Part shown: positions 8,856 to 59,546 of the stretch, in pieces
Layout of the letters: each line of letters opens with the position of its first letter
How positions within the stretch are numbered: position 1 is the first letter of the stretch
From: Escherichia coli
GTDB lineage: Bacteria; Pseudomonadota; Gammaproteobacteria; Enterobacterales; Enterobacteriaceae
Assembly: GCF_022846255.1 (NCBI RefSeq)
Contig: NZ_AP025682.1
Length of the DNA stretch: 64,000 nucleotides
Strand: one strand, 5' to 3'
Made by a program: the position numbers and the translations under genes
Notes under the pieces: model-generated
What the model was told of the DNA's origin: nothing
What the model saw: only the letters and a program-made list of their open reading frames with translations
Database searches by the model: none

Positions 8856-8890
8856 TTCGAGTTGCAGGAAGTGGGTGAGCGAGGAAAACC

Positions 8891-8922
<32 letters not shown>

Positions 8923-14064: not shown

Positions 14065-14066
14065 TT

Positions 14067-15503
14067 ATGGCGCAGTCGAAACTCTATCCAGTTGTGATGG
14101 CAGGTGGCTCCGGTAGCCGCTTATGGCCGCTTTCCCGCGTACTTTACCCCAAGCAGTTTTTATGCCTGAAAGGCGATCTCACCATGCTGCAAACCACCAT
14201 CTGCCGCCTGAACGGCGTGGAGTGCGAAAGCCCGGTGGTGATTTGCAATGAGCAGCACCGCTTTATTGTCGCGGAACAGCTGCGTCAACTGAATAAACTC
14301 ACCGAGAACATTATTCTCGAACCGGCAGGGCGTAACACTGCACCGGCCATTGCGCTGGCGGCGCTGGCGGCAAAACGTCATAGCCCGGAGAGCGACCCGT
14401 TAATGCTGGTCTTGGCGGCGGATCATGTGATTGCCGACGAAGACGCGTTCCGTGCCGCCGTGCGTAATGCCATGCCGTATGCCGAAGCGGGTAAGCTGGT
14501 CACCTTCGGCATTGTGCCGGATCTACCTGAAACCGGATATGGCTATATTCGTCGCGGTGAAGTGTCGGCGGGCGAGCAGGATACGGTGGCCTTTGAAGTG
14601 GCGCAGTTTGTCGAAAAACCGAATCTGGAAACCGCTCAGGCCTATGTGGCAAGCGGCGAATATTACTGGAACAGCGGTATGTTCCTGTTCCGTGCCGGAC
14701 GCTATCTCGAAGAACTGAAAAAATATCGCCCGGATATTCTCGATGCCTGCGAAAAAGCGATGAGCGCCGTCGATCCGGATCTCGATTTTATTCGTGTGGA
14801 TGAAGAAGCGTTTCTGGCCTGCCCGGAAGAGTCGGTGGATTACGCGGTCATGGAACGCACGGCAGATGCCGTTGTGGTGCCGATGGATGCAGGCTGGAGC
14901 GATGTCGGCTCCTGGTCCTCTTTATGGGAGATCAGCGCCCACACCGCCGAGGGCAACGTTTGCCATGGCGATGTGATTAATCACAAAACTGAAAACAGCT
15001 ATGTGTATGCCGAATCTGGCCTGGTCACCACCGTCGGGGTGAAAGATTTGGTGGTAGTGCAGACCAAAGATGCGGTGCTGATTGCCGACCGTAATGCGGT
15101 GCAGGATGTGAAAAAAGTGGTCGAGCAGATCAAAGCTGATGGTCGCCATGAGCATCGGGTGCATCGCGAAGTGTATCGTCCGTGGGGCAAATATGACTCT
15201 ATCGACGCGGGCGACCGCTATCAGGTGAAACGCATCACCGTGAAACCGGGCGAAGGCTTGTCAGTACAGATGCACCATCACCGCGCGGAACACTGGGTAG
15301 TGGTCGCGGGAACGGCAAAAGTCACTATTGACGGTGATATCAAACTGCTTGGTGAAAACGAGTCCATTTATATTCCGCTGGGGGCGACGCACTGCCTGGA
15401 AAACCCGGGGAAAATTCCGCTCGATTTAATTGAAGTGCGCTCCGGCTCTTATCTCGAAGAGGATGATGTGGTGCGCTTCGCGGATCGCTACGGACGGGTG
15501 TAG
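14067..15503 (+). CDS. cpsB: Mannose-1-phosphate guanylyltransferase
   Basis: 478 aa; N-terminal nucleotidyltransferase motif [17 protein letters not shown]-terminal cupin domain. Confidence 0.95.
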
Positions 15504-15603
15504 CCGTTGAATAATCAACCGGATTAATTCTCCGGTAAATAACGAAAAAACAAAATTGGCCGTTTCGGTCAGGGCCAACTATTGCCTGAAAAAGGGTAAC
15601 GAC

Positions 15604-21256: not shown

Positions 21257-22473
21257 AGGTCGGCTTCTTTTTACTGAAATTTCCGTTGTCGTCGGAAACC
21301 TTCGTCCTCAATCAAATTACCGCGTTTATTGATATGGGCTTTGAAGTGGAGATTGTCGCGCTGCAAAAAGGCGACACACAAAACACCCACGCGGCATGGA
21401 CGAAATACAACCTTGCCGCCAGAACCCGCTGGTTACAGGACGAACCTGCGGGCAAAGTGGCGAAACTGCGCCACCGCGCCAGCCAGACCTTACGCGGCAT
21501 TCATCGTAAAAATACCTGGCAGGCGCTCAACCTCAAACGCTATGGTGCTGAGTCGCGGAACCTGATTTTGTCTGCCATTTGCGGTAAGGTCGCAACACCG
21601 TTTCATGCCGATGTCTTTATCGCTCATTTTGGCCCTGCGGGGGTAACCGCAGCAAAACTACGCGAACTGGGTGTCATTCGCGGCAAAATTGCCACTATCT
21701 TCCACGGTATTGATATCTCCAGTCGGGAGGTGCTCAACCACTACACTCCCGAATATCAGCAACTGTTCCGCCGTGGCGACCTGATGCTACCGATCAGCGA
21801 TCTGTGGGCCGGAAGGCTGCAAAAAATGGGATGCCCGAGGGAAAAAATCGCCGTATCGCGCATGGGCGTGGACATGACGCGCTTTAGCCCGCGTCCGGTG
21901 AAAGCGCCCGCAACACCGCTGGAAATCATTTCCGTCGCACGCTTAACCGAGAAAAAAGGCCTGCATGTGGCGATTGAAGCCTGCCGTCAGTTGAAAGAGC
22001 AGGGCGTGGCATTTCGCTATCGCATCCTCGGCATTGGTCCGTGGGAACGACGCCTGCGCACCCTCATCGAACAATATCAACTGGAAGATGTGGTGGAGAT
22101 GCCGGGCTTTAAACCGAGCCACGAAGTGAAAGCGATGCTAGACGACGCGGATGTCTTCCTGTTGCCATCGGTTACAGGTGCGGATGGCGATATGGAAGGT
22201 ATTCCGGTGGCGCTGATGGAAGCGATGGCGGTCGGTATTCCGGTGGTTTCTACTCTGCATAGCGGAATTCCTGAACTGGTGGAGGCCGATAAATCCGGCT
22301 GGTTGGTGCCTGAGAACGATGCTCGCGCACTGGCGCAACGACTGGCGGCGTTTAGCCAACTGGACACCGACGAACTGGCTCCGGTCGTCAAACGTGCTCG
22401 CGAAAAAGTCGAACACGATTTTAACCAGCAGGTGATCAATCGAGAACTCGCCAGCTTGCTGCAGGCTTTATAG
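21253..22473 (+). CDS. wcaL: Colanic acid glycosyltransferase (GT4)
   Basis: 406 aa; 4-bp overlap with wcaK; GT4-type C-terminal [20 protein letters not shown]. Confidence 0.9.
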
Positions 22474-22483
22474 AGGAGAACGC

Positions 22484-23878
22484 ATGCCATTTAAAAAACT
22501 CTCCCGACGCACGTTCCTGACGGCAAGCTCGGTGCTTGCCTTCCTCCATACGCCTTTCGCCCGTGCAATTCCCGCTCAACAAAGCGTTAACATTAACGAC
22601 TACAACCCTCACGACTGGATCGCCTCATTTAAACAAGCCTTCAGCGAAGGGCAAACGGTCGTCGTGCCTGCCGGATTGGTTTGTGACAATATCAACACTG
22701 GCATCTTCATTCCTTCTGGCAAAACGTTACACATCCTCGGAAGCCTGCGCGGCAACGGTAGAGGGCGATTTGTCTTACAGGACGGCAGCCAGGTGACAGG
22801 GGAGGAGGGCGGCAGTATGCATAACATCACCCTGGATGTGCGTGGTTCTGACTGCACCATCAAAGGGCTGGTGATGAGCGGCTTTGGCCCGGTGACGCAG
22901 ATCTATATCGGCGGCAAAAACAAACGGGTCATGCACAACCTGACCATCGATAACCTGACCGTTAGCCACGCTAATTACGCCATCTTACGCCAGGGATTTC
23001 ATAACCAGATAATCGGTGCCAACATCACCAACTGTAAGTTCAGCGACTTACAGGGCGACGCTATTGAATGGAACGTGGCGATTAACGACAGTGATATTTT
23101 GATATCCGACCATCTCATTGAGCGCATTAACTGTACCAACGGCAAAATCAACTGGGGCATCGGCATAGGTCTTGCGGGAAGCACTTATGATAACAACTAC
23201 CCGGAAGACCAGGCAGTGAAAAACTTTGTCGTGGCGAATATCACGGGATCGGATTGTCGGCAACTGATCCATGTTGAAAATGGTAAACATTTTGTTATTC
23301 GTAATATCAAAGCCCGTAATATCACGCCGGATTTCAGTAAGAAAGCAGGTATTGATAACGCCACAGTTGCTATTTATGGTTGTGACAACTTTGTGATTGA
23401 TAATATTGAAATGATTAATAGTGCCGGGATGTTAATCGGCTATGGGGTAATTAAAGGCAAATATCTCTCGATACCGCAGAATTTCCGAGTGAATGATATT
23501 CAACTGGATAATACTCATCTTGCTTATAAATTGCGCGGCATTCAAATCTCCGCCGGGAATGCTGTCTCCTTTGTGGCGCTGACTAACATTGAGATGAAGC
23601 GTGCGTCGCTTGAGCTACACAACAAACCGCAACATCTTTTTATGCGCAATATCAATGTGATGCAGGAATCCTCAGTTGGACCCGCATTGAGCATGAACTT
23701 TGACATGCGCAAAGACGTTCGAGGCGTTTTTATGGCGAAAAAAGAAACACTGCTGTCTCTTGCAAATGTTCATGCGGTGAATGAAAAAGGACAAAGCTCC
23801 GTCGATATCGACAGGATTAATCACCATATTGTTAATGTGGCAAAGATTAACTTTAGATTGCCGGAACGGAGAGAGTAG
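22484..23878 (+). CDS. wcaM: Colanic acid biosynthesis protein (predicted beta-helix fold)
   Basis: 464 aa; Tat-like signal ([14 protein letters not shown]); last gene of the cps operon. Confidence 0.88.
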
Positions 23879-24052
23879 ATTTGCGACCATTCCTGGAAAA
23901 ATGGAGCCATACTTAGGAACAATGCTACTGCAATCCACAACGAAGCGGCGTAACATCACAAGTAATTCAGTAATCAATTCAGGGTAATTGATGCTGGCGA
24001 AAAAAATCGAACAAGCTATAATTCAGCAACCATTTTACAGGTGGATGAAATA

Positions 24053-24946
24053 ATGACGAATTTAAAAGCAGTTATTCCTGTAGCGGGTCTTGGGATGCAT
24101 ATGTTGCCTGCCACTAAGGCGATTCCCAAAGAGATGCTACCGATCGTCGACAAGCCAATGATTCAGTACATCGTTGACGAGATTGTGGCTGCAGGGATCA
24201 AAGAAATCCTCCTGGTAACTCACGCTTCCAAGAACGCGGTCGAAAACCACTTCGACACCTCTTATGAATTAGAATCTCTCCTTGAACAGCGCGTGAAGCG
24301 TCAACTGCTGGCGGAAGTACAGTCCATTTGCCCGCCGGGCGTGACAATTATGAACGTGCGTCAGGGCGAACCTTTAGGTTTGGGCCACTCCATTTTATGT
24401 GCACGACCTGCCATTGGTGACAATCCATTTGTCGTGGTGCTGCCAGACGTTGTGATCGACGACGCCAGCGCCGACCCGCTGCGCTACAACCTTGCTGCCA
24501 TGATTGCGCGCTTCAACGAAACGGGCCGCAGCCAGGTGCTGGCAAAACGTATGCCGGGTGACCTCTCTGAATACTCTGTCATCCAGACCAAAGAGCCGCT
24601 GGACCGCGAAGGTAAAGTCAGCCGCATTGTTGAATTCATCGAAAAACCGGATCAGCCGCAGACGCTGGACTCAGACATCATGGCCGTTGGTCGCTATGTG
24701 CTTTCTGCCGATATTTGGCCGGAACTTGAACGCACTCAGCCTGGTGCATGGGGGCGTATTCAGCTGACTGATGCCATTGCCGAACTGGCGAAAAAACAGT
24801 CCGTTGATGCCATGCTGATGACCGGCGACAGCTACGACTGCGGTAAAAAAATGGGTTATATGCAAGCGTTCGTGAAGTATGGACTACGCAACCTCAAAGA
24901 AGGGGCGAAGTTCCGTAAAGGGATTGAGAAGCTGTTAAGCGAATAA
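24053..24946 (+). CDS. galF: UTP-glucose-1-phosphate uridylyltransferase-like regulatory subunit
   Basis: 297 aa from the ATG at 24053 ([32 protein letters not shown]...); the track ORF starts at an upstream GTG. Confidence 0.93.
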
Positions 24947-25203
24947 TGAAAATCTGACCGGATGTAACGGTTGATAAGAAAATTATAACGGCAGTGAAGA
25001 TTAGCGGCGAAAGTAATTTGTTGCGAATTTTCCTGCCGTTGTTTTATATAAACAATCAGAATAACAACGACTTAGCAATAGGATTTTAGTCAAAGTTTTC
25101 CAGGATTTTCCTTGTTTCCAGAGCGGATTGGTAAGACAATTAGCGCTTGAATTTTTCGAGTTAAGCGCGAGTGGGTAACGCTCGTCACATCGTAGGAATG
25201 CAT

Positions 25204-25243
25204 GCAGTGCTCTGGTAGCTGTAAAGCCAGGGGCGGTAGCGTG
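25204..25243 (+). promoter_or_regulatory. JUMPstart element with ops site (GGCGGTAGCGTG at 25232..25243) in the O-antigen operon leader
   Basis: 39-bp block cagtgctctggtagctgtaaagccaggggcggtagcgtg, about 75 bp upstream of rfbB; near-identical to the cps-leader copy. Confidence 0.85.
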
Positions 25244-25318
25244 CATTAATACCTCTATTAATCAAACTGAGAGCCGCTTATTTCACAGCATGCTCTGAAG
25301 TAATATGGAATAAATTAA

Positions 25319-26404
25319 GTGAAGATACTTGTTACTGGGGGCGCAGGATTTATTGGTTCTGCTGTAGTTCGTCACATTATAAATAATACGCAGGATAGTG
25401 TTGTTAATGTCGATAAATTAACGTACGCCGGAAACCTGGAATCACTTGCTGATGTTTCTGACTCTGAACGCTATGTTTTTGAACATGCGGATATTTGCGA
25501 TGCTGCTGCAATGGCGCGGATTTTTGCTCAGCATCAGCCGGATGCAGTGATGCACCTGGCTGCTGAAAGCCATGTGGATCGTTCAATTACAGGCCCTGCG
25601 GCATTTATTGAAACCAATATTGTTGGTACTTATGTCCTTTTGGAAGCGGCTCGCAATTACTGGTCTGCTCTTGATGGCGACAAGAAAAATAGCTTCCGTT
25701 TTCATCATATTTCTACTGACGAAGTCTATGGTGATTTGCCTCATCCTGACGAAGTAAATAATAAAGAACAATTACCCCTCTTTACTGAGACGACAGCTTA
25801 CGCGCCTAGTAGTCCTTATTCCGCATCAAAAGCATCCAGCGATCATTTAGTCCGCGCGTGGAAACGTACCTATGGTTTACCGACTATTGTGACTAACTGT
25901 TCGAATAACTACGGTCCTTATCACTTTCCGGAAAAATTGATTCCACTAGTAATTCTTAATGCTCTGGAAGGTAAGGCATTACCTATTTATGGCAAAGGGG
26001 ATCAAATTCGTGACTGGCTGTATGTTGAAGATCATGCGCGTGCGTTATATACCGTAGTTACTGAAGGTCAAGCGGGTGAAACCTATAACATTGGCGGACA
26101 CAACGAAAAGAAAAACATCGATGTTGTGCTGACTATTTGTGATTTGTTGGACGAGATAGTCCCGAAAGAGAAATCTTATCGTGAGCAAATTACTTATGTT
26201 GCTGATCGCCCAGGGCATGATCGCCGTTATGCGATTGATGCTGAGAAGATTGGTCGCGAATTGGGATGGAAACCACAGGAAACGTTTGAGAGTGGGATTC
26301 GTAAAACGGTGGAATGGTATTTGGCTAATGCAAAATGGGTTGATAATGTGAAAAGTGGTGCCTATCAATCGTGGATTGAACAGAACTATGAGGGCCGCCA
26401 GTAA
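25319..26404 (+). CDS. rfbB: dTDP-glucose 4,6-dehydratase
   Basis: 361 aa; GTG start; [20 protein letters not shown]ossmann motif. Confidence 0.95.
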
Positions 26405-27303
26405 TGAATATCCTCCTTTTTGGCAAAACAGGGCAGGTAGGTTGGGAACTACAGCGTGCTCTGGCACCTCTGGGTAATTTGATTGCTCTTGATGTTCACT
26501 CCACTGATTACTGTGGTGATTTTAGTAACCCTGAAGGTGTGGCTGAAACAGTCAAAAGAATTCGACCTGATGTTATTGTTAATGCTGCGGCTCACACCGC
26601 AGTAGATAAGGCTGAGTCAGAACCCGAATTTGCACAATTACTCAATGCGACTAGCGTTGAATCAATTGCAAAAGCGGCAAATGAAGTTGGGGCTTGGGTA
26701 ATTCATTACTCAACTGACTACGTATTCCCTGGAAATGGCGACACGCCATGGCTGGAGATGGATGCAACCGCACCGCTAAATGTTTACGGTGAAACCAAGT
26801 TAGCTGGAGAAAAAGCATTACAAGAGCATTGTGCGAAGCACCTAATTTTCCGTACCAGCTGGGTCTATGCAGGTAAAGGAAATAATTTCGCCAAAACGAT
26901 GTTGCGTCTGGCAAAAGAGCGTGAAGAACTAGCCGTTATTAATGATCAGTTTGGTGCGCCAACAGGTGCTGAACTGCTGGCTGATTGTACGGCACATGCC
27001 ATTCGTGTCGCACTGAATAAACCGGATGTCGCAGGCTTGTACCATTTGGTAGCCAGTGGTACCACAACCTGGTACGATTATGCTGCGCTGGTTTTTGAAG
27101 AGGCGCGCAATGCAGGCATTCCTCTTGCACTCAACAAGCTCAACGCAGTACCAACAACTGCCTATCCTACACCAGCTCGTCGTCCACATAACTCTCGCCT
27201 TAATACAGAAAAATTTCAGCAGAATTTTGCGCTTGTATTGCCTGACTGGCAGGTTGGTGTGAAACGCATGCTCAACGAATTATTTACGACTACAGCAATT
27301 TAA
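26404..27303 (+). CDS. rfbD: dTDP-4-dehydrorhamnose reductase
   Basis: 299 aa; overlaps the rfbB stop (ATGA-type junction). Confidence 0.95.
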   Translation: MNILLFGKTGQVGWELQRALAPLGNLIALDVHSTDYCGDFSNPEGVAETVKRIRPDVIVNAAAHTAVDKAESEPEFAQLLNATSVESIAKAANEVGAWVIHYSTDYVFPGNGDTPWLEMDATAPLNVYGETKLAGEKALQEHCAKHLIFRTSWVYAGKGNNFAKTMLRLAKEREELAVINDQFGAPTGAELLADCTAHAIRVALNKPDVAGLYHLVASGTTTWYDYAALVFEEARNAGIPLALNKLNAVPTTAYPTPARRPHNSRLNTEKFQQNFALVLPDWQVGVKRMLNELFTTTAI

Positions 27304-27360
27304 TAGTTTTTGCATCTTGTTCGTGATGGTGGAGCAAGATGAATTAAAAGGAATGATGAA

Positions 27361-28239
27361 ATGAAAACGCGTAAAGGTATTATTTTAGCGGGTGGTTCTG
27401 GTACTCGTCTTTATCCTGTGACTATGGTCGTCAGTAAACAGCTATTACCTATATATGATAAACCGATGATCTATTATCCGCTTTCTACACTGATGTTAGC
27501 GGGTATTCGCGATATTCTGATTATTAGTACGCCACAGGATACTCCTCGTTTTCAACAACTGCTGGGTGACGGTAGCCAGTGGGGCCTGAATCTTCAGTAC
27601 AAAGTGCAACCGAGTCCGGATGGTCTTGCGCAGGCATTTATTATCGGTGAAGAGTTTATTGGTGGTGATGATTGTGCTTTGGTACTTGGTGATAATATCT
27701 TCTACGGTCACGACCTGCCTAAGTTAATGGATGCCGCTGTTAACAAAGAAAGTGGTGCAACGGTATTTGCCTATCACGTTAATGATCCTGAACGCTATGG
27801 TGTCGTTGAGTTTGATAAAAACGGTACGGCGATCAGCCTGGAAGAAAAACCGCTACAACCAAAAAGTAATTATGCGGTAACCGGGCTTTATTTTTATGAT
27901 AACGACGTTGTCGAAATGGCGAAAAATCTTAAGCCTTCTGCCCGCGGTGAACTGGAAATTACCGATATTAACCGTATCTATATGGAACAAGGGCGTTTAT
28001 CTGTTGCCATGATGGGGCGTGGTTATGCGTGGTTAGACACGGGGACACATCAGAGCCTGATTGAGGCAAGCAACTTTATTGCAACAATTGAAGAGCGTCA
28101 GGGGCTGAAAGTTTCCTGCCCGGAAGAAATTGCTTACCGTAAAGGGTTTGTTGATGCTGAGCAGGTGAAAGTATTAGCTGAACCTCTGAAAAAAAATGCT
28201 TATGGTCAGTATCTGCTGAAAATGATTAAAGGTTATTAA
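27361..28239 (+). CDS. rfbA: Glucose-1-phosphate thymidylyltransferase
   Basis: 292 aa; [16 protein letters not shown] motif. Confidence 0.95.
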
Positions 28240-28243
28240 TAAA

Positions 28244-28792
28244 ATGAACGTAATTAAAACAGAAATTCCTGATGTACTGATTTTTGAACCGAAAGTTTTT
28301 GGTGATGAGCGTGGTTTCTTTTTTGAGAGCTTTAACCAGAAGGTTTTTGAGGAAGCTGTAGGCCGCAAAGTTGAATTTGTTCAGGATAACCATTCGAAGT
28401 CTAGTAAAGGTGTTTTACGCGGGCTGCATTATCAGTTGGAACCTTATGCACAAGGAAAATTGGTGCGTTGCGTTGTCGGTGAAGTTTTTGACGTAGCTGT
28501 TGATATTCGTAAATCGTCATCGACTTTTGGCAAATGGGTTGGGGTGAATTTATCTGCTGAGAATAAGCGGCAATTGTGGATTCCTGAGGGATTTGCACAT
28601 GGTTTTTTAGTGCTGAGTGAGACGGCGGAGTTTTTGTATAAGACGACAAATTATTATCATCCTCAGAGTGATAGAGGAATAAAATGGGATGATCCAAGTA
28701 TCAATATTTCATGGCCAGTCGATTCACAAGTGCTGCTATCAGCTAAAGATAATAAGCATCCTCCATTAACAAAGATTGAAATGTATAGTTAA
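28244..28792 (+). CDS. rfbC: dTDP-4-dehydrorhamnose 3,5-epimerase
   Basis: 182 aa; cupin-fold RmlC (FGDERGFFFESF..., RGLHYQ). Confidence 0.93.
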   Translation: MNVIKTEIPDVLIFEPKVFGDERGFFFESFNQKVFEEAVGRKVEFVQDNHSKSSKGVLRGLHYQLEPYAQGKLVRCVVGEVFDVAVDIRKSSSTFGKWVGVNLSAENKRQLWIPEGFAHGFLVLSETAEFLYKTTNYYHPQSDRGIKWDDPSINISWPVDSQVLLSAKDNKHPPLTKIEMYS

Positions 28793-28823
28793 GATCACGA
28801 TAAATCTTGGAAGGGTTGCAAAA

Positions 28824-30062
28824 TTGAATAAAATAGTGAGCAAAAGTGAAATAAGGAACGTAATCCACAATGCTGGCTATATGATGATTACTCAGATAGC
28901 TTTATATGTTGCACCATTATTTATACTGAGTTATCTGTTAAAAACACTGGGGGTTGCACAGTTTGGTAATTATGCCTTAATACTATCAATCGTTGCATAT
29001 TTACAGATTATAACGGATTATGGTTTTTCTTTTAGTGCAAGTCGTGCGATCTCACAGAATAGAGAGGACAAAGAATATATATCAAAAATTTATCTGTCAA
29101 CTATGACTATCAAGTTGGCGATATGCGCTTTCTTATTCTTATTGCTCATGCTATTTTTAAATCTTTTGCCTGTGCAAGCTGAATTAAAACAAGGAATATT
29201 ATATGGATATCTTCTTGTAATAGGAAATACTTTCCAACCACAATGGTTTTTCCAAGGTATCGAAAAATTAAAAATCATAGCCCTTTCTAATGTTATATCA
29301 AGATGCGCCGCGTGTTTACTTGTATTTATCTATGTGAGGAATAGCGAGGATTTACAAAAAGCACTTTTAGTACAGTCACTTCCATTAGTAATTTCTGCGA
29401 TTGGATTAAATATATTTATATTGAAATATATCAATATTATTTTTCCGGAAAAAAAATTATTTAAGGTAATTTTAAAAGAAGGTAAGGATTTTTTTCTTGC
29501 ATCACTTTATTCTGTTATTCTCAATAATAGTGGCATTTTTCTATTAGGGATTTTTACTAATCCTGTTATTGTTGGTGTATATGCCGCCGCTGAAAAGATA
29601 GTCAAGGCCGTATTGTCGCTATTTACACCACTGACGCAAGCTATATATCCTTATAATTGTCGTAAGTTTTCACTATCCGTATTTGACGGCATTGAGGCAG
29701 CAAAAAAAACTGGTATACCAATTATAATTTTAGCATTTATAGCTGCTGTTATCGTTGCAATTACCTTACCTGTTGCAATCGACTATCTTAATTTTCCAAA
29801 AGAAACAATTTTTGTAGGTCAAATATTAAGTGCATGGATCTTTTTTGGTGTTCTTAATAATGTATTCGGCATTCAGATATTGAGTGCATCAGGAAGAAGT
29901 AAAATATATAGTAGGATGGTATTCGTATCAGCGCTTATAACATTACTTTTGATTACTCTATTATTGCAGTTTTGTAACGCCACTGGAGTGGCATGTGCAA
30001 TATTATTGGGTGAAATGTTCTTATCAATATTGTTACTTAAGCGATATAAAAAAATAATTTAA
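28824..30062 (+). CDS. wzx: O-antigen flippase (Wzx)
   Basis: Polytopic membrane protein in an AT-rich gene; start uncertain: TTG at 28824 (MNKIVSKSEIRNV...) preferred over the track ORF start at 28776, which overlaps rfbC. Confidence 0.8.
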   Translation: MNKIVSKSEIRNVIHNAGYMMITQIALYVAPLFILSYLLKTLGVAQFGNYALILSIVAYLQIITDYGFSFSASRAISQNREDKEYISKIYLSTMTIKLAICAFLFLLLMLFLNLLPVQAELKQGILYGYLLVIGNTFQPQWFFQGIEKLKIIALSNVISRCAACLLVFIYVRNSEDLQKALLVQSLPLVISAIGLNIFILKYINIIFPEKKLFKVILKEGKDFFLASLYSVILNNSGIFLLGIFTNPVIVGVYAAAEKIVKAVLSLFTPLTQAIYPYNCRKFSLSVFDGIEAAKKTGIPIIILAFIAAVIVAITLPVAIDYLNFPKETIFVGQILSAWIFFGVLNNVFGIQILSASGRSKIYSRMVFVSALITLLLITLLLQFCNATGVACAILLGEMFLSILLLKRYKKII

Positions 30063-30071
30063 GGAATAGTT

Positions 30072-31199
30072 ATGAAGAAGTTATTATTAGTGTTCGGTAC
30101 TAGGCCTGAAGCAATAAAGATGGCCTCTATCATTGAATTATTAAAAAAAGATTGTAGATTCGAATATAAAATATGTGTGACAGGCCAACATAAAGAGATG
30201 CTTGATCAAGTTATGCAAGTATTTGATGTTAAACCTGATTATAATTTACGGATTATGCAGCCTGGGCAAACATTAGTATCTGTAGCAACAAATATACTCT
30301 CACGGTTAAGTGAAGTTTTAATTATAGAAAAGCCAGATATTATACTTGTGCATGGGGATACAACGACTACCCTTGCTGCTACTTTAGCTGGGTATTACCA
30401 CCAAATAAAAGTTTGTCATGTGGAAGCAGGATTAAGAACAGGGGATATTTACTCTCCTTGGCCTGAAGAGGGCAATCGTAAAGTTACAGGGGCATTAGCA
30501 TGTATTCATTTCGCCCCAACAGAGAGATCAAAAGATAATCTCCTGAGGGAGGGGGTCAAAGTAAATAATATATTTGTAACGGGTAATACCGTCATCGACT
30601 CTTTATTTATTGCAAAAGATATCATAGATAATGACCCTAATATAAAGAACGCTTTACATAATAAATTTAATTTTCTTGATAAAAGCCGACGAGTAGTACT
30701 TATAACAGGTCATCGAAGAGAAAATTTCGGGAAAGGTTTTGAAGATATATGCTTTGCAATAAAGGAATTAGCTTTCATTTATCCTAATGTAGATTTTATT
30801 TATCCGGTGCATCTTAATCCCAATGTAATGGAACCAGTACATCGTATATTAGATAATATATGTAATATTTACCTTATTGAGCCCTTGGATTATTTGCCTT
30901 TTGTTTATTTAATGAATGAGTCATATTTAATATTGACTGATTCAGGGGGGATACAAGAAGAAGCGCCTTCGTTAGGTAAACCGGTTTTGGTTATGCGTGA
31001 TACTACTGAACGCCCTGAGGCGGTTGAGGCTGGTACTGTTGTATTAGTGGGGACTTCTAAGATAAAAATAGTAAATAAAGTAACGGAGCTATTAAACAAT
31101 GCTGATATCTACAATGCTATGTCTCTGTTACATAATCCATATGGCGATGGAACAGCTGCTCAAAAAATTCTTAATGTGCTCGCCCAAGAGCTAATTTAA
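30072..31199 (+). CDS. UDP-N-acetylglucosamine 2-epimerase (non-hydrolysing, WecB/MnaA-like)
   Basis: 375 aa; N-terminal LLVFGTRPEAIKMA and HGDTTTTLAATLAGYY, HVEAGLRTGD motifs. Confidence 0.85.
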   Translation: MKKLLLVFGTRPEAIKMASIIELLKKDCRFEYKICVTGQHKEMLDQVMQVFDVKPDYNLRIMQPGQTLVSVATNILSRLSEVLIIEKPDIILVHGDTTTTLAATLAGYYHQIKVCHVEAGLRTGDIYSPWPEEGNRKVTGALACIHFAPTERSKDNLLREGVKVNNIFVTGNTVIDSLFIAKDIIDNDPNIKNALHNKFNFLDKSRRVVLITGHRRENFGKGFEDICFAIKELAFIYPNVDFIYPVHLNPNVMEPVHRILDNICNIYLIEPLDYLPFVYLMNESYLILTDSGGIQEEAPSLGKPVLVMRDTTERPEAVEAGTVVLVGTSKIKIVNKVTELLNNADIYNAMSLLHNPYGDGTAAQKILNVLAQELI

Positions 31200-31213
31200 T
31201 TTAAGCTAAAAAT

Positions 31214-32278
31214 ATGTTATTAATTATTGCTGATTATCCAAACGAAATGAATATGCGCGAGGGAGCTATGCAACGAATAGATGCGATAGACTCTCTCATT
31301 CGAGATCGCAAGCGAGTGTATTTGAATATTTCATTCAAAAAGCATCTAGTTCGCTCAAATAGTTCCTTTAATAATGTTATAGTTGAAAATCTAAATGCAA
31401 TTATTCACAGAAACATCATAAAACAGTACATGCAAAAATCAACAACTATATATGTTCATTCTGTTTATAATTTATTAAAGGTTATAACGCTCATTGATCT
31501 AAAAAAAACAATTCTTGATATACATGGTGTTGTACCGGAAGAACTTTTGGCAGATAATAAAAAATTACTTAGTAAAGTATATAACATGGTGGAAAAAAAA
31601 GGTGTCCTTGGATGCAAAAAATTAATACACGTCAGTACAGAAATGCAAAAACACTATGAAGCAAAATATGGAGTAAACTTGGCTGAAAGGTCAATAGTGC
31701 TCCCGATTTTTGAATATAAAAATATAACCCAATCGCAAAACAAATGGACAGAAAATAAAATACGAAGTATCTATCTTGGAGGATTACAAACATGGCAAAA
31801 TATTGATAAAATGATTCAAATTTGTGATGACACAGTGATAAACAATGAAGCAGGTAAGTATGAATTCAACTTTTTCATCCCACAGAGTAACTTGGAAGGG
31901 TTTATAGATAAATATTCGTTAAAATTACATAATATCAATGCTAATGCATCTACGCTATCACGTGATGAAGTAATTCCCTTTCTAAAAGAATGTCATATTG
32001 GTTTTGTATTGCGCGATGATATAATAGTAAACAGAGTTGCGTGCCCTACAAAATTGGTTGAATATTTAGAGTGTGGTGTCGTTCCAGTTGTGCTCTCCCC
32101 ACTTATAGGTGATTTTTATTCGATGGGATATCAATACATTACTACAGAGGAAATGGCTAACAGAAGTATAAGTTTGTTGGATCTTGAAAAAATGGCTGCA
32201 CATAATTTACAAATTTTGACTTCTTATCAGAAGAGAACCTACAAGGCACAGAAAGAACTTATTGCTCAACTGTGCTGA
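31214..32278 (+). CDS. Putative O-antigen glycosyltransferase (GT-B/GT4-like)
   Basis: 354 aa; AT-rich; C-terminal PTKLVEYLECGVVPVV resembles the GT4 donor-binding region; position in the O-antigen cluster. Confidence 0.6.
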   Translation: MLLIIADYPNEMNMREGAMQRIDAIDSLIRDRKRVYLNISFKKHLVRSNSSFNNVIVENLNAIIHRNIIKQYMQKSTTIYVHSVYNLLKVITLIDLKKTILDIHGVVPEELLADNKKLLSKVYNMVEKKGVLGCKKLIHVSTEMQKHYEAKYGVNLAERSIVLPIFEYKNITQSQNKWTENKIRSIYLGGLQTWQNIDKMIQICDDTVINNEAGKYEFNFFIPQSNLEGFIDKYSLKLHNINANASTLSRDEVIPFLKECHIGFVLRDDIIVNRVACPTKLVEYLECGVVPVVLSPLIGDFYSMGYQYITTEEMANRSISLLDLEKMAAHNLQILTSYQKRTYKAQKELIAQLC

Positions 32279-32329
32279 ATTTTTTACATATATAAAATTA
32301 TGTAAGCATATCGCTGGTCAGGTAATTGT

Positions 32330-33334
32330 ATGCGTATCAAATATAAAGATAACGGTTATATATTATGTTTTCTATTATGTTTCATTTTGAGCTACTTAGT
32401 TTTACTCAAATCTGACTACTTTCCTGCTGATTTTCTGCCATATACAGAAATATACGATGGGACATACGGAGAAATCAATAATATTGAGCCTGCCTTTTTA
32501 TATTTAACACGGTTGTTTCATTATTTAAATTTCCCCTATATATTTTTTGCAATGTTAGTTTGTGCCTTATGTTTAAGTTGGAAAATAAAATATGCAAGAA
32601 AAATAATTAAAGATAGTTATATATATTTATTCTTGTATGTATATGTATCATTTTATGTGTTTTTGCATGAAATGACTCAATTGCGCATAGCAATTGCAGT
32701 CACTATGTGCTATGTGTCGGTTTATTATTACTTTTATAAAAATTGTATTAAACATGCACTGCCATGGATGGTGTTGGCTATTTTGTTTCATTACAGCGCC
32801 TTGCTTTTATTTATGTCATTATTTATATACAGTTATAGGAGGTTATTAATAGTAATTATAGGGTTTGTAATATGTATGAGCTTTTTAAACGTGTATGCAG
32901 ATACAATTGCACTATATTTGCCAAATGAAAAAATAGTAAATTATTTATATAGTATTTCATCATCATTAGACAATAGAAATGATTTGGCAATATTCAACCT
33001 GAATAATATAATATTTTTATCAATATTTATTTTGATCTTTTATCTTAGCCGATATATAAAATTAAATGATAATGAGGCGAAGTTTATTAAGTATGTGCAA
33101 TGTTCAGGAATATTAGCCTTTTGTATTTTCTTTCTGGCTAGTGGAGTCCCGGTCATTGCTTATCGAACTGCAGAGTTGCTGCGAATATTTTATCCGATGG
33201 CTTTAGTATTAATCCTTTCGCATATAAAAAATAATAATATGCGTTATTTTATTGCAGTCATTATAGTTATCCTTTCAGGCTTAATGTTGTTTATAACACT
33301 AAGGGCTGTATCAATAGTTGGTCAAGGATTATAA
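32330..33334 (+). CDS. wzy: Putative O-antigen polymerase (Wzy)
   Basis: 334 aa, very hydrophobic with about 10 predicted transmembrane helices; very AT-rich; typical position in the cluster. Confidence 0.7.
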   Translation: MRIKYKDNGYILCFLLCFILSYLVLLKSDYFPADFLPYTEIYDGTYGEINNIEPAFLYLTRLFHYLNFPYIFFAMLVCALCLSWKIKYARKIIKDSYIYLFLYVYVSFYVFLHEMTQLRIAIAVTMCYVSVYYYFYKNCIKHALPWMVLAILFHYSALLLFMSLFIYSYRRLLIVIIGFVICMSFLNVYADTIALYLPNEKIVNYLYSISSSLDNRNDLAIFNLNNIIFLSIFILIFYLSRYIKLNDNEAKFIKYVQCSGILAFCIFFLASGVPVIAYRTAELLRIFYPMALVLILSHIKNNNMRYFIAVIIVILSGLMLFITLRAVSIVGQGL

Positions 33335-34295
33335 AATGAATGTTGCTATTTTGTTGTCTACGTATAATGGCGAAAAATATTTAGAGGAACAACTGGATTC
33401 ATTGCTGCTTCAAAGTTATCAGGATTTTGTAGTGTATATCCGTGATGACGGATCATCTGATAGAACTGTAAATATAATAAACCAATACGTAATGAAAGAT
33501 AACAGATTTATTAACGTGGGTAATTCAGAAAATCTTGGTTGTGCTGCTTCGTTTATTAATTTATTAAGAAATGCTTCAGCCGATATTTATATGTTTTGTG
33601 ACCAAGATGATTATTGGCTTCCGAATAAATTACAGCGTGCTGTGGATTATTTTTCGGCTATTGATCCTTTACAACCTACCTTGTATCATTGCGATCTAAG
33701 CGTTGTTGATGAAAAACTTAATATTATACAAAATTCATTTTTGCAGCATCAGAAAATGTCAGCGTATGATTCAATGAGAAAAAATAATCTTTTCATACAA
33801 AATTTTGTTGTTGGTTGTTCATGTGCTGTTAATGCTTCACTTGCGGAATTTGTTCTTTCGCGAATTGGAGAGCAGCATGTAAAAATGATAGCTATGCATG
33901 ACTGGTGGTTAGCCGTGACTGCAAAACTTTTTGGTCGAATCCATTTTGATAATACTCAAACGATTCTTTATCGACAACATCAGGGCAATGTATTAGGTGC
34001 AAAATCATCAGGTATGATGCGTTTTATTCGATTAGGATTAAATGGGCAAGGGATTTCGCGAGTAGTATCTTTTAGAAAAAAAGTTTGTGCGCAAAATAAG
34101 CTTCTTTTAGATGTCTATGATAAAGAGTTAAATCTTGAGCAAAAAAAATCTATCAGGCTTGTAATTGAGGGCCTTAAAGAGAACTCTTCAATTGCTGACC
34201 TTTTAAAATGTTTCTATCATGGTAGCTATATGCAAGGTTTTAAACGTAATCTTGCCTTAATATATTCAGTTCTTTACACAAAAAAAAGAAGATAG
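33318..34295 (+). CDS. Glycosyltransferase family 2
   Basis: NVAILLSTYNGEKYLEEQLDSLLLQSY...IRDDGSSDRT GT2 signature; start could be the ATG at 33336. Confidence 0.8.
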   Translation: MVKDYKMNVAILLSTYNGEKYLEEQLDSLLLQSYQDFVVYIRDDGSSDRTVNIINQYVMKDNRFINVGNSENLGCAASFINLLRNASADIYMFCDQDDYWLPNKLQRAVDYFSAIDPLQPTLYHCDLSVVDEKLNIIQNSFLQHQKMSAYDSMRKNNLFIQNFVVGCSCAVNASLAEFVLSRIGEQHVKMIAMHDWWLAVTAKLFGRIHFDNTQTILYRQHQGNVLGAKSSGMMRFIRLGLNGQGISRVVSFRKKVCAQNKLLLDVYDKELNLEQKKSIRLVIEGLKENSSIADLLKCFYHGSYMQGFKRNLALIYSVLYTKKRR

Positions 34296-34304
34296 TGTAT
34301 CCTT

Positions 34305-35369
34305 ATGAAAAAAATTGCTATTATCGGTACTGTTGGCATACCAGCATCATATGGCGGATTTGAAACATTAGTTGAAAATTTAACAAGATACAATTCCTCG
34401 GGAGTTGAATATAATGTTTTTTGTTCATCGTTTCACTACAAATCCCACCAAAAAAAACATAATGGGGCCCGTTTAATTTATATTCCGCTTAAAGCCAATG
34501 GATGGCAGAGCATTGCGTATGACATAATTTCGTTAGCATATTCTATTTTTTTGAAGCCTGATGTGATTCTGATTTTAGGGGTTTCTGGTTGTTCATTTTT
34601 GCCTTTCTTCAAACTCTTAACACGCGCTAAGTTTATTACTAATATTGATGGCTTGGAATGGCGAAGAGATAAATGGAATTCAAAAGTGAAACGTTTCTTA
34701 AAATTTTCAGAAAAAATCGCAGTTCAATATTCGGATGTCGTTATTACGGATAATGAGGCAATTTCTGAGTACGTTTTTAACGAGTATAATAAAGATAGCC
34801 GAGTTATTGCCTATGGAGGGGATCATGCATGGTTAAATACTGAGGATGTATTTACAACAAGAAATTATAAAAGCGATTACTACCTTTCTGTATGTCGTAT
34901 CGAACCCGAAAACAATGTAGAATTAATTTTAAAAACATTTTCAAAGCTAAAATATAAAATAAAATTTATTGGAAATTGGAATGGCAGCGAGTTTGGAAAG
35001 AAACTTAGGCTGCATTATTCTAACTATCCAAATATTGAAATGATTGATCCGATTTATGATCTTCAACAATTATTTCACTTACGAAATAATTGCATAGGAT
35101 ATATACATGGTCATTCGGCTGGAGGAACAAACCCTTCTTTAGTCGAGGCAATGCATTTTAGTAAACCTATATTTGCATATGATTGTAAGTTTAATAGGTA
35201 CACTACTGAAAATGAAGCATGTTATTTTTCTAATGAATCTGACCTCGCAGAGAAAATCATAATGCATTGTGAGCTATCATTAGGTGTCTCTGGCACGAAA
35301 ATGAAAGAAATTGCTAACCAGAAATACACTTGGAGACGAATAGCAGAAATGTATGAGGATTGCTATTAA
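34305..35369 (+). CDS. Glycosyltransferase (GT1/GT4 with DUF1972-like N-terminus)
   Basis: 354 aa; N-terminal KIAIIGTVGIPASYGGFETLVENL; last gene before gnd. Confidence 0.75.
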   Translation: MKKIAIIGTVGIPASYGGFETLVENLTRYNSSGVEYNVFCSSFHYKSHQKKHNGARLIYIPLKANGWQSIAYDIISLAYSIFLKPDVILILGVSGCSFLPFFKLLTRAKFITNIDGLEWRRDKWNSKVKRFLKFSEKIAVQYSDVVITDNEAISEYVFNEYNKDSRVIAYGGDHAWLNTEDVFTTRNYKSDYYLSVCRIEPENNVELILKTFSKLKYKIKFIGNWNGSEFGKKLRLHYSNYPNIEMIDPIYDLQQLFHLRNNCIGYIHGHSAGGTNPSLVEAMHFSKPIFAYDCKFNRYTTENEACYFSNESDLAEKIIMHCELSLGVSGTKMKEIANQKYTWRRIAEMYEDCY

Positions 35370-35473
35370 CTCTGTTAAACTTCAAATCTTTTACAATATA
35401 TGGCATGACTATAAGCGCATTAATTGTTTTTCAAGCCGCTCTCGCGGTGACCACCCCCTGACAGGAGTAAACA

Positions 35474-36880
35474 ATGTCAAAGCAACAGATCGGCGTCGTC
35501 GGTATGGCAGTGATGGGGCGCAACCTTGCGCTCAACATCGAAAGCCGTGGTTATACCGTCTCTATTTTCAACCGTTCCCGTGAAAAGACGGAAGAAGTGA
35601 TTGCCGAAAATCCAGGCAAGAAACTGGTTCCTTACTATACGGTGAAAGAGTTTGTTGAATCTCTGGAAACGCCTCGTCGCATCCTGTTAATGGTGAAAGC
35701 AGGTGCAGGCACGGATGCTGCTATTGATTCCCTCAAACCATATCTCGATAAAGGTGACATCATCATTGATGGTGGCAATACCTTCTTCCAGGACACCATT
35801 CGTCGTAACCGTGAACTTTCTGCCGAAGGCTTTAACTTCATTGGTACCGGTGTCTCCGGTGGTGAAGAAGGCGCGCTGAAAGGTCCTTCTATTATGCCTG
35901 GTGGGCAGAAAGAAGCCTATGAACTGGTTGCACCAATCCTGACCAAAATCGCCGCAGTAGCTGAAGACGGGGAGCCATGCGTTACCTATATTGGTGCCGA
36001 TGGCGCAGGCCATTATGTGAAGATGGTTCACAACGGTATTGAATACGGCGATATGCAGCTGATTGCTGAAGCCTATTCTCTGCTTAAAGGTGGCTTGAAC
36101 CTTTCCAACGAAGAACTGGCGCAGACCTTTACCGAGTGGAATAACGGTGAACTGAGCAGCTACCTGATTGACATCACTAAAGACATCTTCACTAAAAAAG
36201 ATGAAGACGGTAACTACCTGGTTGATGTGATTCTGGATGAAGCGGCTAACAAAGGTACCGGTAAATGGACCAGCCAGAGCGCGCTGGATCTCGGTGAACC
36301 GCTGTCGCTGATTACCGAGTCTGTGTTTGCACGTTATATCTCTTCTCTGAAAGATCAGCGTGTTGCCGCATCTAAAGTTCTCTCTGGCCCGCAAGCGCAG
36401 CCAGCAGGCGATAAAGATGAGTTCATCGAAAAAGTTCGCCGTGCACTGTATCTGGGCAAAATCGTTTCTTACGCTCAGGGCTTCTCTCAACTGCGTGCGG
36501 CGTCTGAAGAGTACAACTGGGATCTGGACTACGGCGAAATCGCGAAGATTTTCCGTGCTGGCTGCATCATCCGTGCGCAGTTCCTGCAGAAAATCACCGA
36601 TGCTTATGCCGAAAATCCGCAGATCGCTAACCTGCTGCTGGCTCCGTACTTCAAGCAAATCGCCGATGACTACCAGCAGGCGCTGCGCGATGTCGTCGCT
36701 TACGCGGTACAGAACGGTATCCCGGTTCCGACCTTCGCCGCTGCGGTTGCCTATTATGACAGCTACCGCGCCGCTGTTCTGCCTGCGAACCTGATCCAGG
36801 CACAGCGTGACTATTTCGGTGCGCATACTTATAAGCGCATTGATAAAGAAGGTGTGTTCCATACCGAATGGCTGGATTAA
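35474..36880 (+). CDS. gnd: 6-phosphogluconate dehydrogenase (decarboxylating)
   Basis: 468 aa; [21 protein letters not shown]ossmann N-terminus; conserved position between the O-antigen cluster and ugd. Confidence 0.97.
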
Positions 36881-36906
36881 TCTGATTTAATCAACAATAA
36901 AATTGA

Positions 36907-36937
36907 GGCCCGGCGTATATTATGCCGGGTTTTTTTT
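36907..36937 (+). terminator. Rho-independent terminator after gnd
   Basis: ggcccggcgtatattatgccggg hairpin followed by an 8-T tract. Confidence 0.8.
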
Positions 36938-37118
36938 ACCAATTATCTTATAGACTAAATTTCACTGCTTAATATTAACTTAATAAATATCAGCTATTCT
37001 TATAAAGAAATTCTGAATTGTTTTTCGTTGCGTTGACCATCTTACAACGTAGCGTTAAAACTTTTAACTCTTATCAGGATGCTAAAAACATCATGATTCA
37101 CAGTTAAGTTAATTCTGA

Positions 37119-38294
<1,176 letters not shown>

Positions 38295-38439: not shown

Positions 38440-39420
38440 ATGAGAGTAGAAAATAATAATGTTTCTGGGCAAAACCATGACCCGGAACAGATTGATTTGA
38501 TTGATTTACTAGTGCAGTTGTGGCGTGGCAAGATGACAATCATCATTTCCGTCATTGTGGCTATTGCCCTGGCTATTGGATATTTGGCAGTAGCGAAGGA
38601 GAAATGGACGTCAACAGCAATTATCACTCAGCCCGATGTGGGGCAAATTGCTGGCTATAACAATGCCATGAATGTTATCTATGGTCAGGCTGCACCGAAA
38701 GTATCGGATTTGCAGGAGACGTTAATTGGTCGCTTCAGTTCTGCCTTCTCTGCATTAGCAGAAACGCTGGATAATCAGGAAGAACCAGAAAAACTTACCA
38801 TCGAACCTTCTGTTAAGAACCAGCAATTACCATTGACTGTTTCTTATGTTGGGCAAACTGCAGAGGGCGCACAAATGAAGTTGGCCCAATACATTCAGCA
38901 AGTTGACGATAAAGTGAATCAAGAGTTAGAAAAGGATCTCAAGGACAACATTGCTCTGGGACGGAAAAACTTGCAGGACTCTTTAAGAACGCAGGAAGTG
39001 GTTGCGCAGGAGCAGAAAGATCTGCGTATCCGTCAGATTCAGGAAGCGTTGCAGTATGCGAATCAGGCGCAGGTGACAAAACCGCAGATTCAACAGACTG
39101 GCGAAGATATCACACAAGATACGTTGTTCCTTTTGGGGAGCGAAGCGCTGGAGTCGATGATTAAGCATGAGGCGACCCGTCCGTTGGTGTTCTCACCAAA
39201 CTACTATCAGACTCGTCAAAACCTGCTTGATATCGAAAGCTTAAAGGTTGATGATCTTGATATTCATGCTTACCGCTATGTAATGAAACCGACGTTACCT
39301 ATTCGTCGTGATAGCCCGAAAAAGGCAATTACCTTGATTCTGGCGGTGCTGCTGGGTGGCATGGTTGGCGCGGGGATTGTGCTGGGGCGTAATGCTCTAC
39401 GCAATTACAACGCGAAGTAA
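38440..39420 (+). CDS. wzzB: O-antigen chain-length determinant (PCP-1)
   Basis: Start taken at the ATG at 38440 (MRVENNNVSGQ...), giving 326 aa; N- and C-terminal transmembrane helices flanking a coiled-coil periplasmic domain. Confidence 0.9.
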   Translation: MRVENNNVSGQNHDPEQIDLIDLLVQLWRGKMTIIISVIVAIALAIGYLAVAKEKWTSTAIITQPDVGQIAGYNNAMNVIYGQAAPKVSDLQETLIGRFSSAFSALAETLDNQEEPEKLTIEPSVKNQQLPLTVSYVGQTAEGAQMKLAQYIQQVDDKVNQELEKDLKDNIALGRKNLQDSLRTQEVVAQEQKDLRIRQIQEALQYANQAQVTKPQIQQTGEDITQDTLFLLGSEALESMIKHEATRPLVFSPNYYQTRQNLLDIESLKVDDLDIHAYRYVMKPTLPIRRDSPKKAITLILAVLLGGMVGAGIVLGRNALRNYNAK

Positions 39421-46813: not shown

Positions 46814-46967
46814 GGGCTTTTTTATATATTTTATGGCAATGGATTTGTTTAATGAATGAGCGGGGAAAGGAGGGGGCCTGGAGTGACTACGTTAGAAAAG
46901 AAATCGTGAAAATATGTCTTTAAAACCCTCAAGAACATTGTGTTCTGTAACTAAAGTGGGCTTTGTT

Positions 46968-47072
46968 CCTGCCGGATGCGGCGTGAATGCCTTATCTGGT
47001 CTACAAATGTTGCGTAAATTCAATATATTGATGTTTTTGTAGGACTGATAAGCGGAGCGCATCAGGCAATGG
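46968..47072. repeat. Two REP elements in the hisL-yeeZ spacer
   Basis: gccggatgcggcgtgaatgccttatctgg and gtaggactgataagcggagcgcatcaggc palindromic REP-type motifs. Confidence 0.65.
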
Positions 47073-47171
47073 TATATTTGCTAACCGTTTCGATTTCATT
47101 CATAGAATGAATTGTCAGTTTTGATACGCTAGCGTAGCCTTATAGATCTTAGGTGTATCAGGAGATAACGG

Positions 47172-59484: not shown

Positions 59485-59546
59485 GATGGGATACCTCTGA
59501 AGACAGAAGATAAAAGTGAAAACAAGTGTGATGTAGTTGTGACGGG

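Follow-up and report, generated by a model that had tools for sequence, protein, structure and literature searches.

An intact O1A antigen operon in the galF-gnd slot of a non-K-12 Escherichia coli chromosome, with a proposed pathway of O-unit assembly

The O1 serogroup of Escherichia coli is genetically heterogeneous: the O1A cluster is distinct from several O1non-A clusters, and all of these share a 5' end of the order rmlBDAC-wzx-mnaA-glycosyltransferase (GT) gene (PMC5293828). The repeat unit of O1A, built from rhamnose (Rha), N-acetylglucosamine (GlcNAc), and N-acetylmannosamine (ManNAc), is given as ->3)[beta-D-ManNAc-(1->2)]-alpha-L-Rha-(1->3)-alpha-L-Rha-(1->3)-beta-L-Rha-(1->4)-beta-D-GlcNAc-(1-> (PMC11148006 Table 1). 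A "10.05 kb" operon is identical among O1 (O1a) blood isolates of sequence type (ST) 648, and the versions in ST59, ST95, and ST38, a few single nucleotide polymorphisms (SNPs) apart, have been confirmed as O1a by nuclear magnetic resonance; the gene names rmlB-rmlD-rmlA-rmlC-wzx-mnaA-wekM-wzy-wekN-wekO used below are taken from the same study (PMC11237799). The present analysis deals with six genes at positions 28776-35369 of a 64,000-nucleotide (nt) stretch of E. coli DNA (contig NZ_AP025682.1 of assembly GCF_022846255.1; "the window"). This region is almost certainly the serogroup-specific half of an intact, Wzx/Wzy-dependent O1A operon, located in the galF-gnd slot of a chromosome with a non-K-12 background, for which a pathway of O-unit assembly can be proposed.

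When 5,426 complete E. coli genomes were searched by megablast with 28776-35369, the six-gene region was found in 101 of them. In 91 of these, 80% or more of the region is present, with an identity of at least 99.3%. Over 6,594 bp, Ecol_881, MS6198, ECONIH1, and a large number of other genomes are 100% identical to it in nucleotide sequence; for APEC O1 (O1:K1:H7; NC_008563), the figure is 99.9%. MS6198 is an O1:H6 isolate of ST648, phylogroup F (PMC8281228), and Ecol_881 is an ST648 reference (PMC9174282). The Wzx protein is 99.5 to 100% identical to the APEC O1 and ST648 versions, and RefSeq gives both wzx and wzy "O1 family" product names. An earlier note, made from the letters alone, had called an O1-type cluster with the order rmlBDAC-wzx-epimerase-GT-wzy-GT-GT and had proposed a BLAST search as the check. 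The O1 call holds and can be sharpened to O1A.

Because O1 is genetically heterogeneous, the O1A-specific assay was run in silico. The oligonucleotides of the wzyO1A quantitative PCR assay (PMC5293828 Table 1; designed on G1632/GU299791) all match the window with 0 mismatches, the forward primer at 33117-33143, the probe at 33145-33171, and the reverse primer at 33182-33206. The last of these, listed as a "reverse primer", matches the + strand as printed, that is, it stands in the table in sense orientation. The forward primer and probe of the O1non-A wzx assay, the two of its oligonucleotides that were searched, have no match in the window at up to 3 mismatches. The span from rmlB to wekO measures 10,051 bp, and both the galF-gnd position and the ten-gene O1A order are present. 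The cluster is an already known one, a base-for-base allele of ST648 and ST38 isolates, and nothing in it is new.

The window shares its chromosomal slot, its ten genes, their order, and the 10.05-kb length with the O1A reference family (G1632/U5-41, GU299791; APEC O1; and the ST648 O1:H6 strains MS6198 and Ecol_881). Over the six-gene region, some 10 SNPs separate it from APEC O1. In that strain's record (NC_008563; fetched locus 21297-23501), wecB/mnaA is frameshifted and wekM is split into two open reading frames (ORFs), whereas the window copies are intact; the frameshifts could stem from old sequencing errors or mark true pseudogenes. The upstream side sets the window apart from these relatives, as its colanic-acid cluster differs by about 2% from those of all the O1 genomes examined.

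Two other records with O1A DNA show unusual arrangements. In CRECJHTL34 (NZ_CM192843.1; fetched locus 13244-15602), an IS1 element stands in place of everything between the end of rfbA and mid-wekN, so that wekN is partial while wekO is still intact; this isolate is presumably rough. NZ_CP087289.1, a 5,269-bp record of strain APEC 16-1068 that is counted as a plasmid, contains nothing but O1A cluster DNA (from wzx to a fragment of wekO) and seems to be an artefact of assembly and not a plasmid.

The ORF map shows six codirectional ORFs on the + strand in 28776-35369, flanked by rfbBDAC (25319-28792) and gnd (35474-36880) and either overlapping or separated from their neighbours by no more than about 50 nt (Table 1). 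All ten ORFs of the operon are intact, and the RmlB, RmlD, RmlA, and RmlC proteins show 100% amino acid identity to those of APEC O1. The start of wzx at 28776 is a TTG codon that overlaps rfbC and gives the longest possible ORF; RefSeq selects a GTG at 28836. Likewise, the RefSeq start of wekN is at 33336, as against 33318 for the longest ORF. The G+C fraction is 0.50 to 0.56 in the wca/galF flank, 0.41 to 0.46 in rfbBDAC, and 0.26 to 0.36 at 28.5 to 35.5 kb, and it climbs back to 0.49 in gnd, which agrees with the sharp drop in composition downstream of rfbBDAC that had been noticed earlier.

Upstream of rmlB lies a JUMPStart element with its ops sequence, the RfaH antitermination signal expected for an O-antigen operon. 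RfaH-dependent read-through of the operon from this element would accordingly be expected. Further ops matches (GGCGGTAG) are found upstream of wza at 1066-1073 and 479-486, the window holding 5 in total versus 1.5 expected by chance; the one at 1066 probably belongs to the JUMPStart of the colanic-acid operon. Scans of 24.9 to 37.2 kb for promoters and terminators gave no excess over shuffled controls (47 versus 45.3 and 8 versus 7.9, respectively).

Table 1. Features of the O1A locus and of its surroundings in the window
Feature	Coordinates	Strand	Assignment and basis
Longest ORFs of the six-gene region	28776-30062, 30072-31199, 31214-32278, 32330-33334, 33318-34295, 34305-35369	+	ORF map
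wzx	28836-30062	+	O1-type O-unit flippase; PF01943 3.5e-41; RefSeq "O1 family O-antigen flippase" on identical DNA
mnaA (RefSeq: wecB)	30072-31199	+	Nonhydrolysing UDP-GlcNAc 2-epimerase making UDP-ManNAc; TIGR00236; 1F6D match
wekM	31214-32278	+	Divergent GT-B (GT4-like) glycosyltransferase; homologue Pfam matches, predicted fold, gene neighbourhood
wzy	32330-33334	+	O1A O-antigen polymerase; EpsG PF14897 1.4e-30; RefSeq "O1 family O-antigen polymerase"
wekN	33336-34295	+	GT2 (inverting, GT-A) glycosyltransferase; PF00535 3.5e-24, residues 5-163
wekO	34305-35369	+	DUF1972 + GT1 (GT4-type) transferase; PF09314 7e-34, residues 1-173; PF00534 2.6e-08, residues 186-319
galF	24053-24946	+	Upstream boundary gene of O-antigen locus; RefSeq annotation of identical DNA
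JUMPStart element, 39 bp	25205-25243	+	Upstream of rmlB; ops GGCGGTAG at 25232-25239; read from sequence, ops pattern match
rmlB	25319-26404	+	dTDP-L-rhamnose pathway; ORF, RefSeq annotation of identical Ecol_881 DNA
rmlD	26404-27303	+	dTDP-L-rhamnose pathway; same basis
rmlA	27361-28239	+	dTDP-L-rhamnose pathway; same basis
rmlC	28244-28792	+	dTDP-L-rhamnose pathway; same basis
gnd	35474-36880	+	Downstream boundary gene; RefSeq annotation of identical DNA
ugd	37128-38294	+	Downstream boundary gene; same basis
wzzB	38440-39420	+	Chain-length regulator; same basis
Segment matching ST648 and ST38 O1 genomes	23792-58965		Mismatch maps; one mismatch each (compared to 48,990 for ST648 and to ~58.9 kb for ST38)
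O1A cassette of ~13.5 kb (end of wcaM, galF, operon, gnd, start of ugd)	23873-37339		Common to ST95 APEC O1; 13 mismatches

The gene functions proposed earlier for this region (Wzx, an epimerase, a GT4-like transferase, Wzy, a GT2 enzyme, and a DUF1972-type transferase) are each backed by domain, homologue, or fold evidence. All features of a Wzx/Wzy-dependent pathway are present, namely, a PF01943 flippase, a Wzy of the EpsG family, wzzB, and JUMPStart/ops. MnaA scores 503.7 bits against TIGR00236, above the equivalog cutoff of 210.15, and 108.8 bits against the model of the hydrolysing enzyme NeuC, under its cutoff of 235.9; it also matches the structure of E. coli WecB (1F6D) with an E value of 2.2e-150. 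NCBIfam searches returned no family for Wzx, WekM, or Wzy.

In the proposed pathway, WecA, encoded outside the window, would form GlcNAc-PP-undecaprenol, RmlBDAC would supply dTDP-L-Rha, and MnaA would convert UDP-GlcNAc to UDP-ManNAc. After this priming with GlcNAc, there are three glycosyltransferases, WekM, WekN, and WekO, for four bonds. WekO, a retaining enzyme of the DUF1972/GT4 type similar to GacB and Cps2T, would add beta-L-Rha-(1->4) onto GlcNAc; WekN, an inverting GT2 enzyme, would attach the two alpha-L-Rha-(1->3) residues; and WekM, a GT-B enzyme paired with the epimerase, would attach the beta-D-ManNAc-(1->2) branch. The resulting pentasaccharide would be flipped by Wzx and polymerised by Wzy, with the chain length set by WzzB and the final ligation to the core performed by WaaL, which is encoded elsewhere.

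WekO resembles streptococcal GacB and Streptococcus pneumoniae WchF (Cps2T) in combining a DUF1972 N-terminal domain with a GT1 C-terminal domain and in carrying a GGTNPSLxE motif. It aligns end to end with the NCBIfam model NF046071 ("beta 1-4 rhamnosyltransferase Cps2T") at 5.4e-68 and 229.6 bits. Its motif reads GGTNPSLVE, one conservative L-to-V change away from the GGTNP(G/S)LLE motif of GacB and WchF (PMC6802508). GacB has been demonstrated to be a retaining GlcNAc beta-1,4-rhamnosyltransferase (PMC6802508), and the predicted WekO product, beta-L-Rha-(1->4)-GlcNAc-PP-undecaprenol, is exactly that of the GacB reaction. Since retention of the GacB type yields a beta bond from dTDP-beta-L-Rha, a beta-Rha product is predicted here as well. 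By these likenesses, WekO is a candidate beta-1,4 rhamnosyltransferase that would add the first Rha to GlcNAc-PP-undecaprenol. It differs from GacB and WchF in its Cps2T score, which is below the cutoff, and in its Gram-negative O-antigen context.

WekN, in addition to its Pfam match, has only generic GT2 matches in NCBIfam, each under its cutoff. GT2 enzymes are inverting and would convert dTDP-beta-L-Rha to an alpha-Rha linkage (CAZy mechanisms). WekN may thus be the alpha-1,3 rhamnosyltransferase that forms both Rha-Rha bonds. O1 is listed among the clusters in which one glycosyltransferase probably forms two Rha-Rha linkages (PMC7685785).

WekM, a divergent protein, was the only one of the six whose assignment was uncertain. 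Its own sequence gives only a subthreshold GT4 match in Pfam (E = 0.015). A database search found 508 homologues, and 40 of them were sampled for a Pfam scan and an alignment. At E values of 0.001 or lower, PF13439 is matched by 15, PF13579 by 13, and PF00534 by 7 of the 40, which are signals of the GT4 N-terminal and GT1 C-terminal parts of an enzyme with two Rossmann-like domains. A GT2 match is found in Pfam neither for WekM nor for any of the sampled homologues (0/40). The AlphaFold2 model built on the 40-sequence alignment has a predicted local distance difference test (pLDDT) score of 94.6 and a predicted template modelling (pTM) score of 0.89, and its best solved matches in Foldseek are GT-B enzymes, GlgM, glycogen synthase, OtsA, BshA, MshA, and WaaG, with E values of ~1e-11 to 1e-9 and template modelling (TM) scores of 0.55 to 0.66. 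Searches of the PDB by sequence returned nothing meaningful for single WekM, and with the 40-sequence profile the best hit, to unrelated glycan-binding proteins, had an E value of 0.5. The designation "GT4-like", given earlier to the gene after the epimerase, is therefore supported by the homologue matches and the GT-B fold in spite of the weak E value of WekM itself. RefSeq lists WekM (WP_000924430.1) as "glycosyl transferase family 2". Because the homologues lack GT2 matches and the predicted fold is GT-B, not GT-A, this name is a misnomer.

Gene neighbourhoods point to a function for this protein. Seven loci with WekM homologues in other genera (Citrobacter, Salmonella, Aeromonas, Comamonas, Pedobacter, Acinetobacter, and Iodobacter) were inspected, and a PF02350 2-epimerase gene lies directly upstream of the homologue in all seven; a complete rml set was not found in the fetched flanks of four of them. 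The wzx-mnaA-GT module is also kept in the O1 variants, all of which have a ManNAc branch (PMC5293828). In view of the constant adjacency to the epimerase gene, WekM is predicted to be the beta-1,2 ManNAc transferase for the side branch.

Several points weigh against the scheme as drawn. Whereas the cluster identity, the protein families, the WekM fold, and the gene neighbourhoods come from the analysis itself, which glycosyltransferase makes which bond is something that we infer. WekO, at 229.6 bits against an equivalog cutoff of 500 for Cps2T, is a homologue and not an equivalog. The closest folds to WekM are retaining GT-B enzymes, and the formation of beta-ManNAc from UDP-alpha-ManNAc requires inversion, so that either the WekM family inverts despite its GT4-like fold or the assignment is incomplete. 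Also, the window does not cover wecA, waaL, or whatever modifying genes a prophage might carry. The stereochemical mismatch gives some appeal to a swapped wiring, in which WekN would form the beta-ManNAc branch, GT2 inversion being well suited to that reaction, and WekM, whose retaining relatives are a poor fit to a beta-ManNAc product, would make one or both Rha-Rha bonds. However, a retaining WekM could not yield alpha-L-Rha from dTDP-beta-L-Rha, and the stereochemistry would stay problematic. The 7/7 epimerase adjacency includes the four loci without a complete rml set in the fetched flanks, which makes a rhamnosyltransferase role unlikely there, and the wzx-mnaA-GT module accompanies a ManNAc branch in every O1 variant. 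The swapped wiring thus seems unlikely. Another alternative takes the locus as O1A by sequence and supposes a defect, or a modifying gene, beyond the ends of the window; the strain would then be rough or modified and the antigen not displayed. Such cases are known: among the 41 genotypically O1 isolates of a Pfizer survey, 6 were nonreactive with O1a antiserum, four of the six having truncated lipopolysaccharide (PMC11237799), and degraded O1A clusters do exist, as in the IS1-truncated CRECJHTL34 and in the APEC O1 record with its frameshifted mnaA and wekM. Here, in contrast, the ten operon ORFs, JUMPStart, gnd, ugd, and wzzB are intact, many clinical O1 isolates have identical copies, and loss of display appears quite improbable.

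The identity of the cluster leaves far less room for doubt. The O1 non-A clusters (CB11070/CB13533/CB14293 and the A47 mosaic; PMC5293828) share with the window the 5' module rmlBDAC-wzx-mnaA-GT, and their antigens have the ManNAc-(1->2)-Rha branch in common with O1A (PMC11148006). A variant of the O1B/O1C type or an A47-like mosaic, in which galactose (Gal) replaces one Rha, would therefore look similar at its 5' end and would be missed by O1A-based tools and vaccines; a Salmonella look-alike, which has only the wzx-mnaA-wekM module in common with the window, shows that this module can join other 3' halves. The wzx and wzy genes of O1 non-A clusters are, however, only ~54% and ~45 to 48% identical, respectively, to the O1A genes (PMC5293828), compared with the near identity of the window's Wzx to those of APEC O1 and ST648, and the last gene encodes a Cps2T-like DUF1972 transferase predicted to act on Rha, as fits the beta-Rha-(1->4)-GlcNAc bond. 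Together with the exact wzyO1A matches and the absence of the two O1non-A wzx oligonucleotides searched, the near-identical wzx effectively refutes an O1 non-A identity, to which hardly any probability can be given. The K-12 O16 cluster (rfbBDAC-rfbX-glf-wbbHIJK-wbbL::IS5) occupies the same chromosomal slot, and its RmlB, RmlD, and RmlA show 94 to 97.5% amino acid identity to those of the window. It is ruled out, in agreement with the earlier note: no K-12 DNA aligns to 28,694-35,442, glf, wbbH-L, and IS5 are absent, RmlC is 70% identical, and RfbX shares only 28.5% identity with Wzx. The other claim made for the background, a K-12-like (phylogroup A) chromosome with only the O-antigen locus swapped, fails. 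In its favour are the gene order yegH-wca-galF-rfb-gnd-ugd-wzz-his-yeeZ, which is that of MG1655, and the 96.7 to 97.5% amino acid identity of RmlB and RmlD to K-12. Yet gene order is the only K-12-like feature, and it is common to all four backbones compared (K-12, ST648, ST38, and ST95). MG1655 differs from the window by 5 to 92 mismatches per kb in every aligned kilobase of the flanks (block identities of 97.2%, 96.5%, 92.9%, 97.0%, and 97.9%), and no K-12 relative is among the best matches of either flank. The yefM-yoeB pair is missing from the ~220 nt between hisL and yeeZ (46877-47095); it is present in K-12 and APEC O1 and absent from the ST648 and ST38 genomes. Fetched K-12 DNA does not align to 60 to 64 kb, and the window has a single mismatch to ST648 over 23,792-48,990 and a single one to ST38 up to ~58.9 kb. 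A K-12-like backbone is thus very improbable. The idea of an exchanged O-antigen locus holds in general, as the cassette of ~13.5 kb shared with ST95 indicates; what does not hold is that its recipient was K-12-like.

A cluster of Citrobacter freundii (CP048382 and a Logan contig) is fully syntenic: rmlBDAC-wzx-epimerase-WekM-Wzy(EpsG)-GT2-DUF1972-gnd. Its six serogroup-specific proteins show 53 to 74% amino acid identity to those of the window, and its DUF1972 gene is split in CP048382. It represents a sister cluster and not the same allele.

The mismatch maps outline the history of the locus. The sole mismatch to Ecol_881 (ST648) in the shared segment is at 44985, and the sole mismatch to strain 144 (ST38) is at 29379. 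The last upstream mismatch versus both of them is at 23791, in the 3' end of wcaM, and the boundary 23791/23792 is a sharp recombination junction. The near-identity to ST95 (phylogroup B2) is confined to ~23,873-37,339, outside of which the flanks of APEC O1 differ by ~2 to 5%; because of this confinement, the O1A cassette, from galF to the start of ugd, has moved between unrelated lineages. The flank at 39.5 to 64 kb is 99.8% identical to Ecol_881, strain 144, and SMS-3-5, the last of which belongs to ST354 (PMC9174282).

The colanic-acid cluster (1-23791; end of yegH, wza to wcaM) is near-identical to ST648 at 14 to 21 kb and ~2 to 5% diverged at 1 to 14 and 21 to 23.8 kb. Among the 5,426 genomes, the best match is 98.0% identical for the whole 24 kb, 98.2% for the first 13.5 kb, and 97.8% for wcaK-wcaM. 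An artefact was considered as the source of the ~2% divergence in the wca region and rejected: 375 of 467 mismatches (80%) fall on the third base of a codon, and short pieces have exact matches in other lineages. The colanic-acid side is a recombination mosaic.

A few additional features of the flanks deserve mention. K-12 and ST648 lack a 77-nt insert that the window has at 8843-8919, in the intergenic space of wcaD and wcaE, and that is present in ~723 complete genomes; it may be similar to a short ERIC/IRU repeat. A REP-like sequence is found at 46971-47004. At 58966-59829, in a CP4-44-like cbeA/yeeT/yeeS block, 37 mismatches to strain 144 are packed in less than 900 bp, with the surroundings otherwise identical, a pattern suggestive of gene conversion with a paralogous copy of the island as donor. 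The - strand of 60000-64000 carries island genes for an antirestriction protein, a DUF932 protein, two hypothetical proteins, and a patatin-like phospholipase, as well as the start of an RdcB-family gene, none of which has its equivalent in K-12 at this site. In ST38 strain 144, antirestriction, DUF932, patatin-like phospholipase, and RdcB genes are found on the DNA that matches 60 to 64 kb.

O1A ranks among the main O types in invasive extraintestinal E. coli, and candidate glycoconjugate vaccines include it. Because it is both common in invasive disease and a vaccine antigen, the O1A call has practical value, and the distinction between O1A and O1non-A matters when strains are typed and the coverage of a vaccine is assessed. 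The strain lacks a K-12-like background, and its locus displays textbook recombination junctions of O-antigen exchange. The RefSeq product name of WekM needs correction, and, from neighbourhood and fold evidence together, the four O1A bonds can be assigned to the three glycosyltransferases in a reasoned way that lends itself to testing. A more tentative reading, with chances somewhat short of even, goes further: WekM might represent a widespread family of GT-B ManNAc transferases for which neither Pfam nor NCBIfam has a dedicated model, which is often mislabelled "family 2", and which inverts despite a fold nearest to the retaining GT4, GT5, and GT20 enzymes. Separately, given a colanic-acid cluster that no complete genome matches in full above ~98% and that joins the ST648- and ST38-like segment in wcaM, the source strain might belong to an unsampled recombinant lineage.

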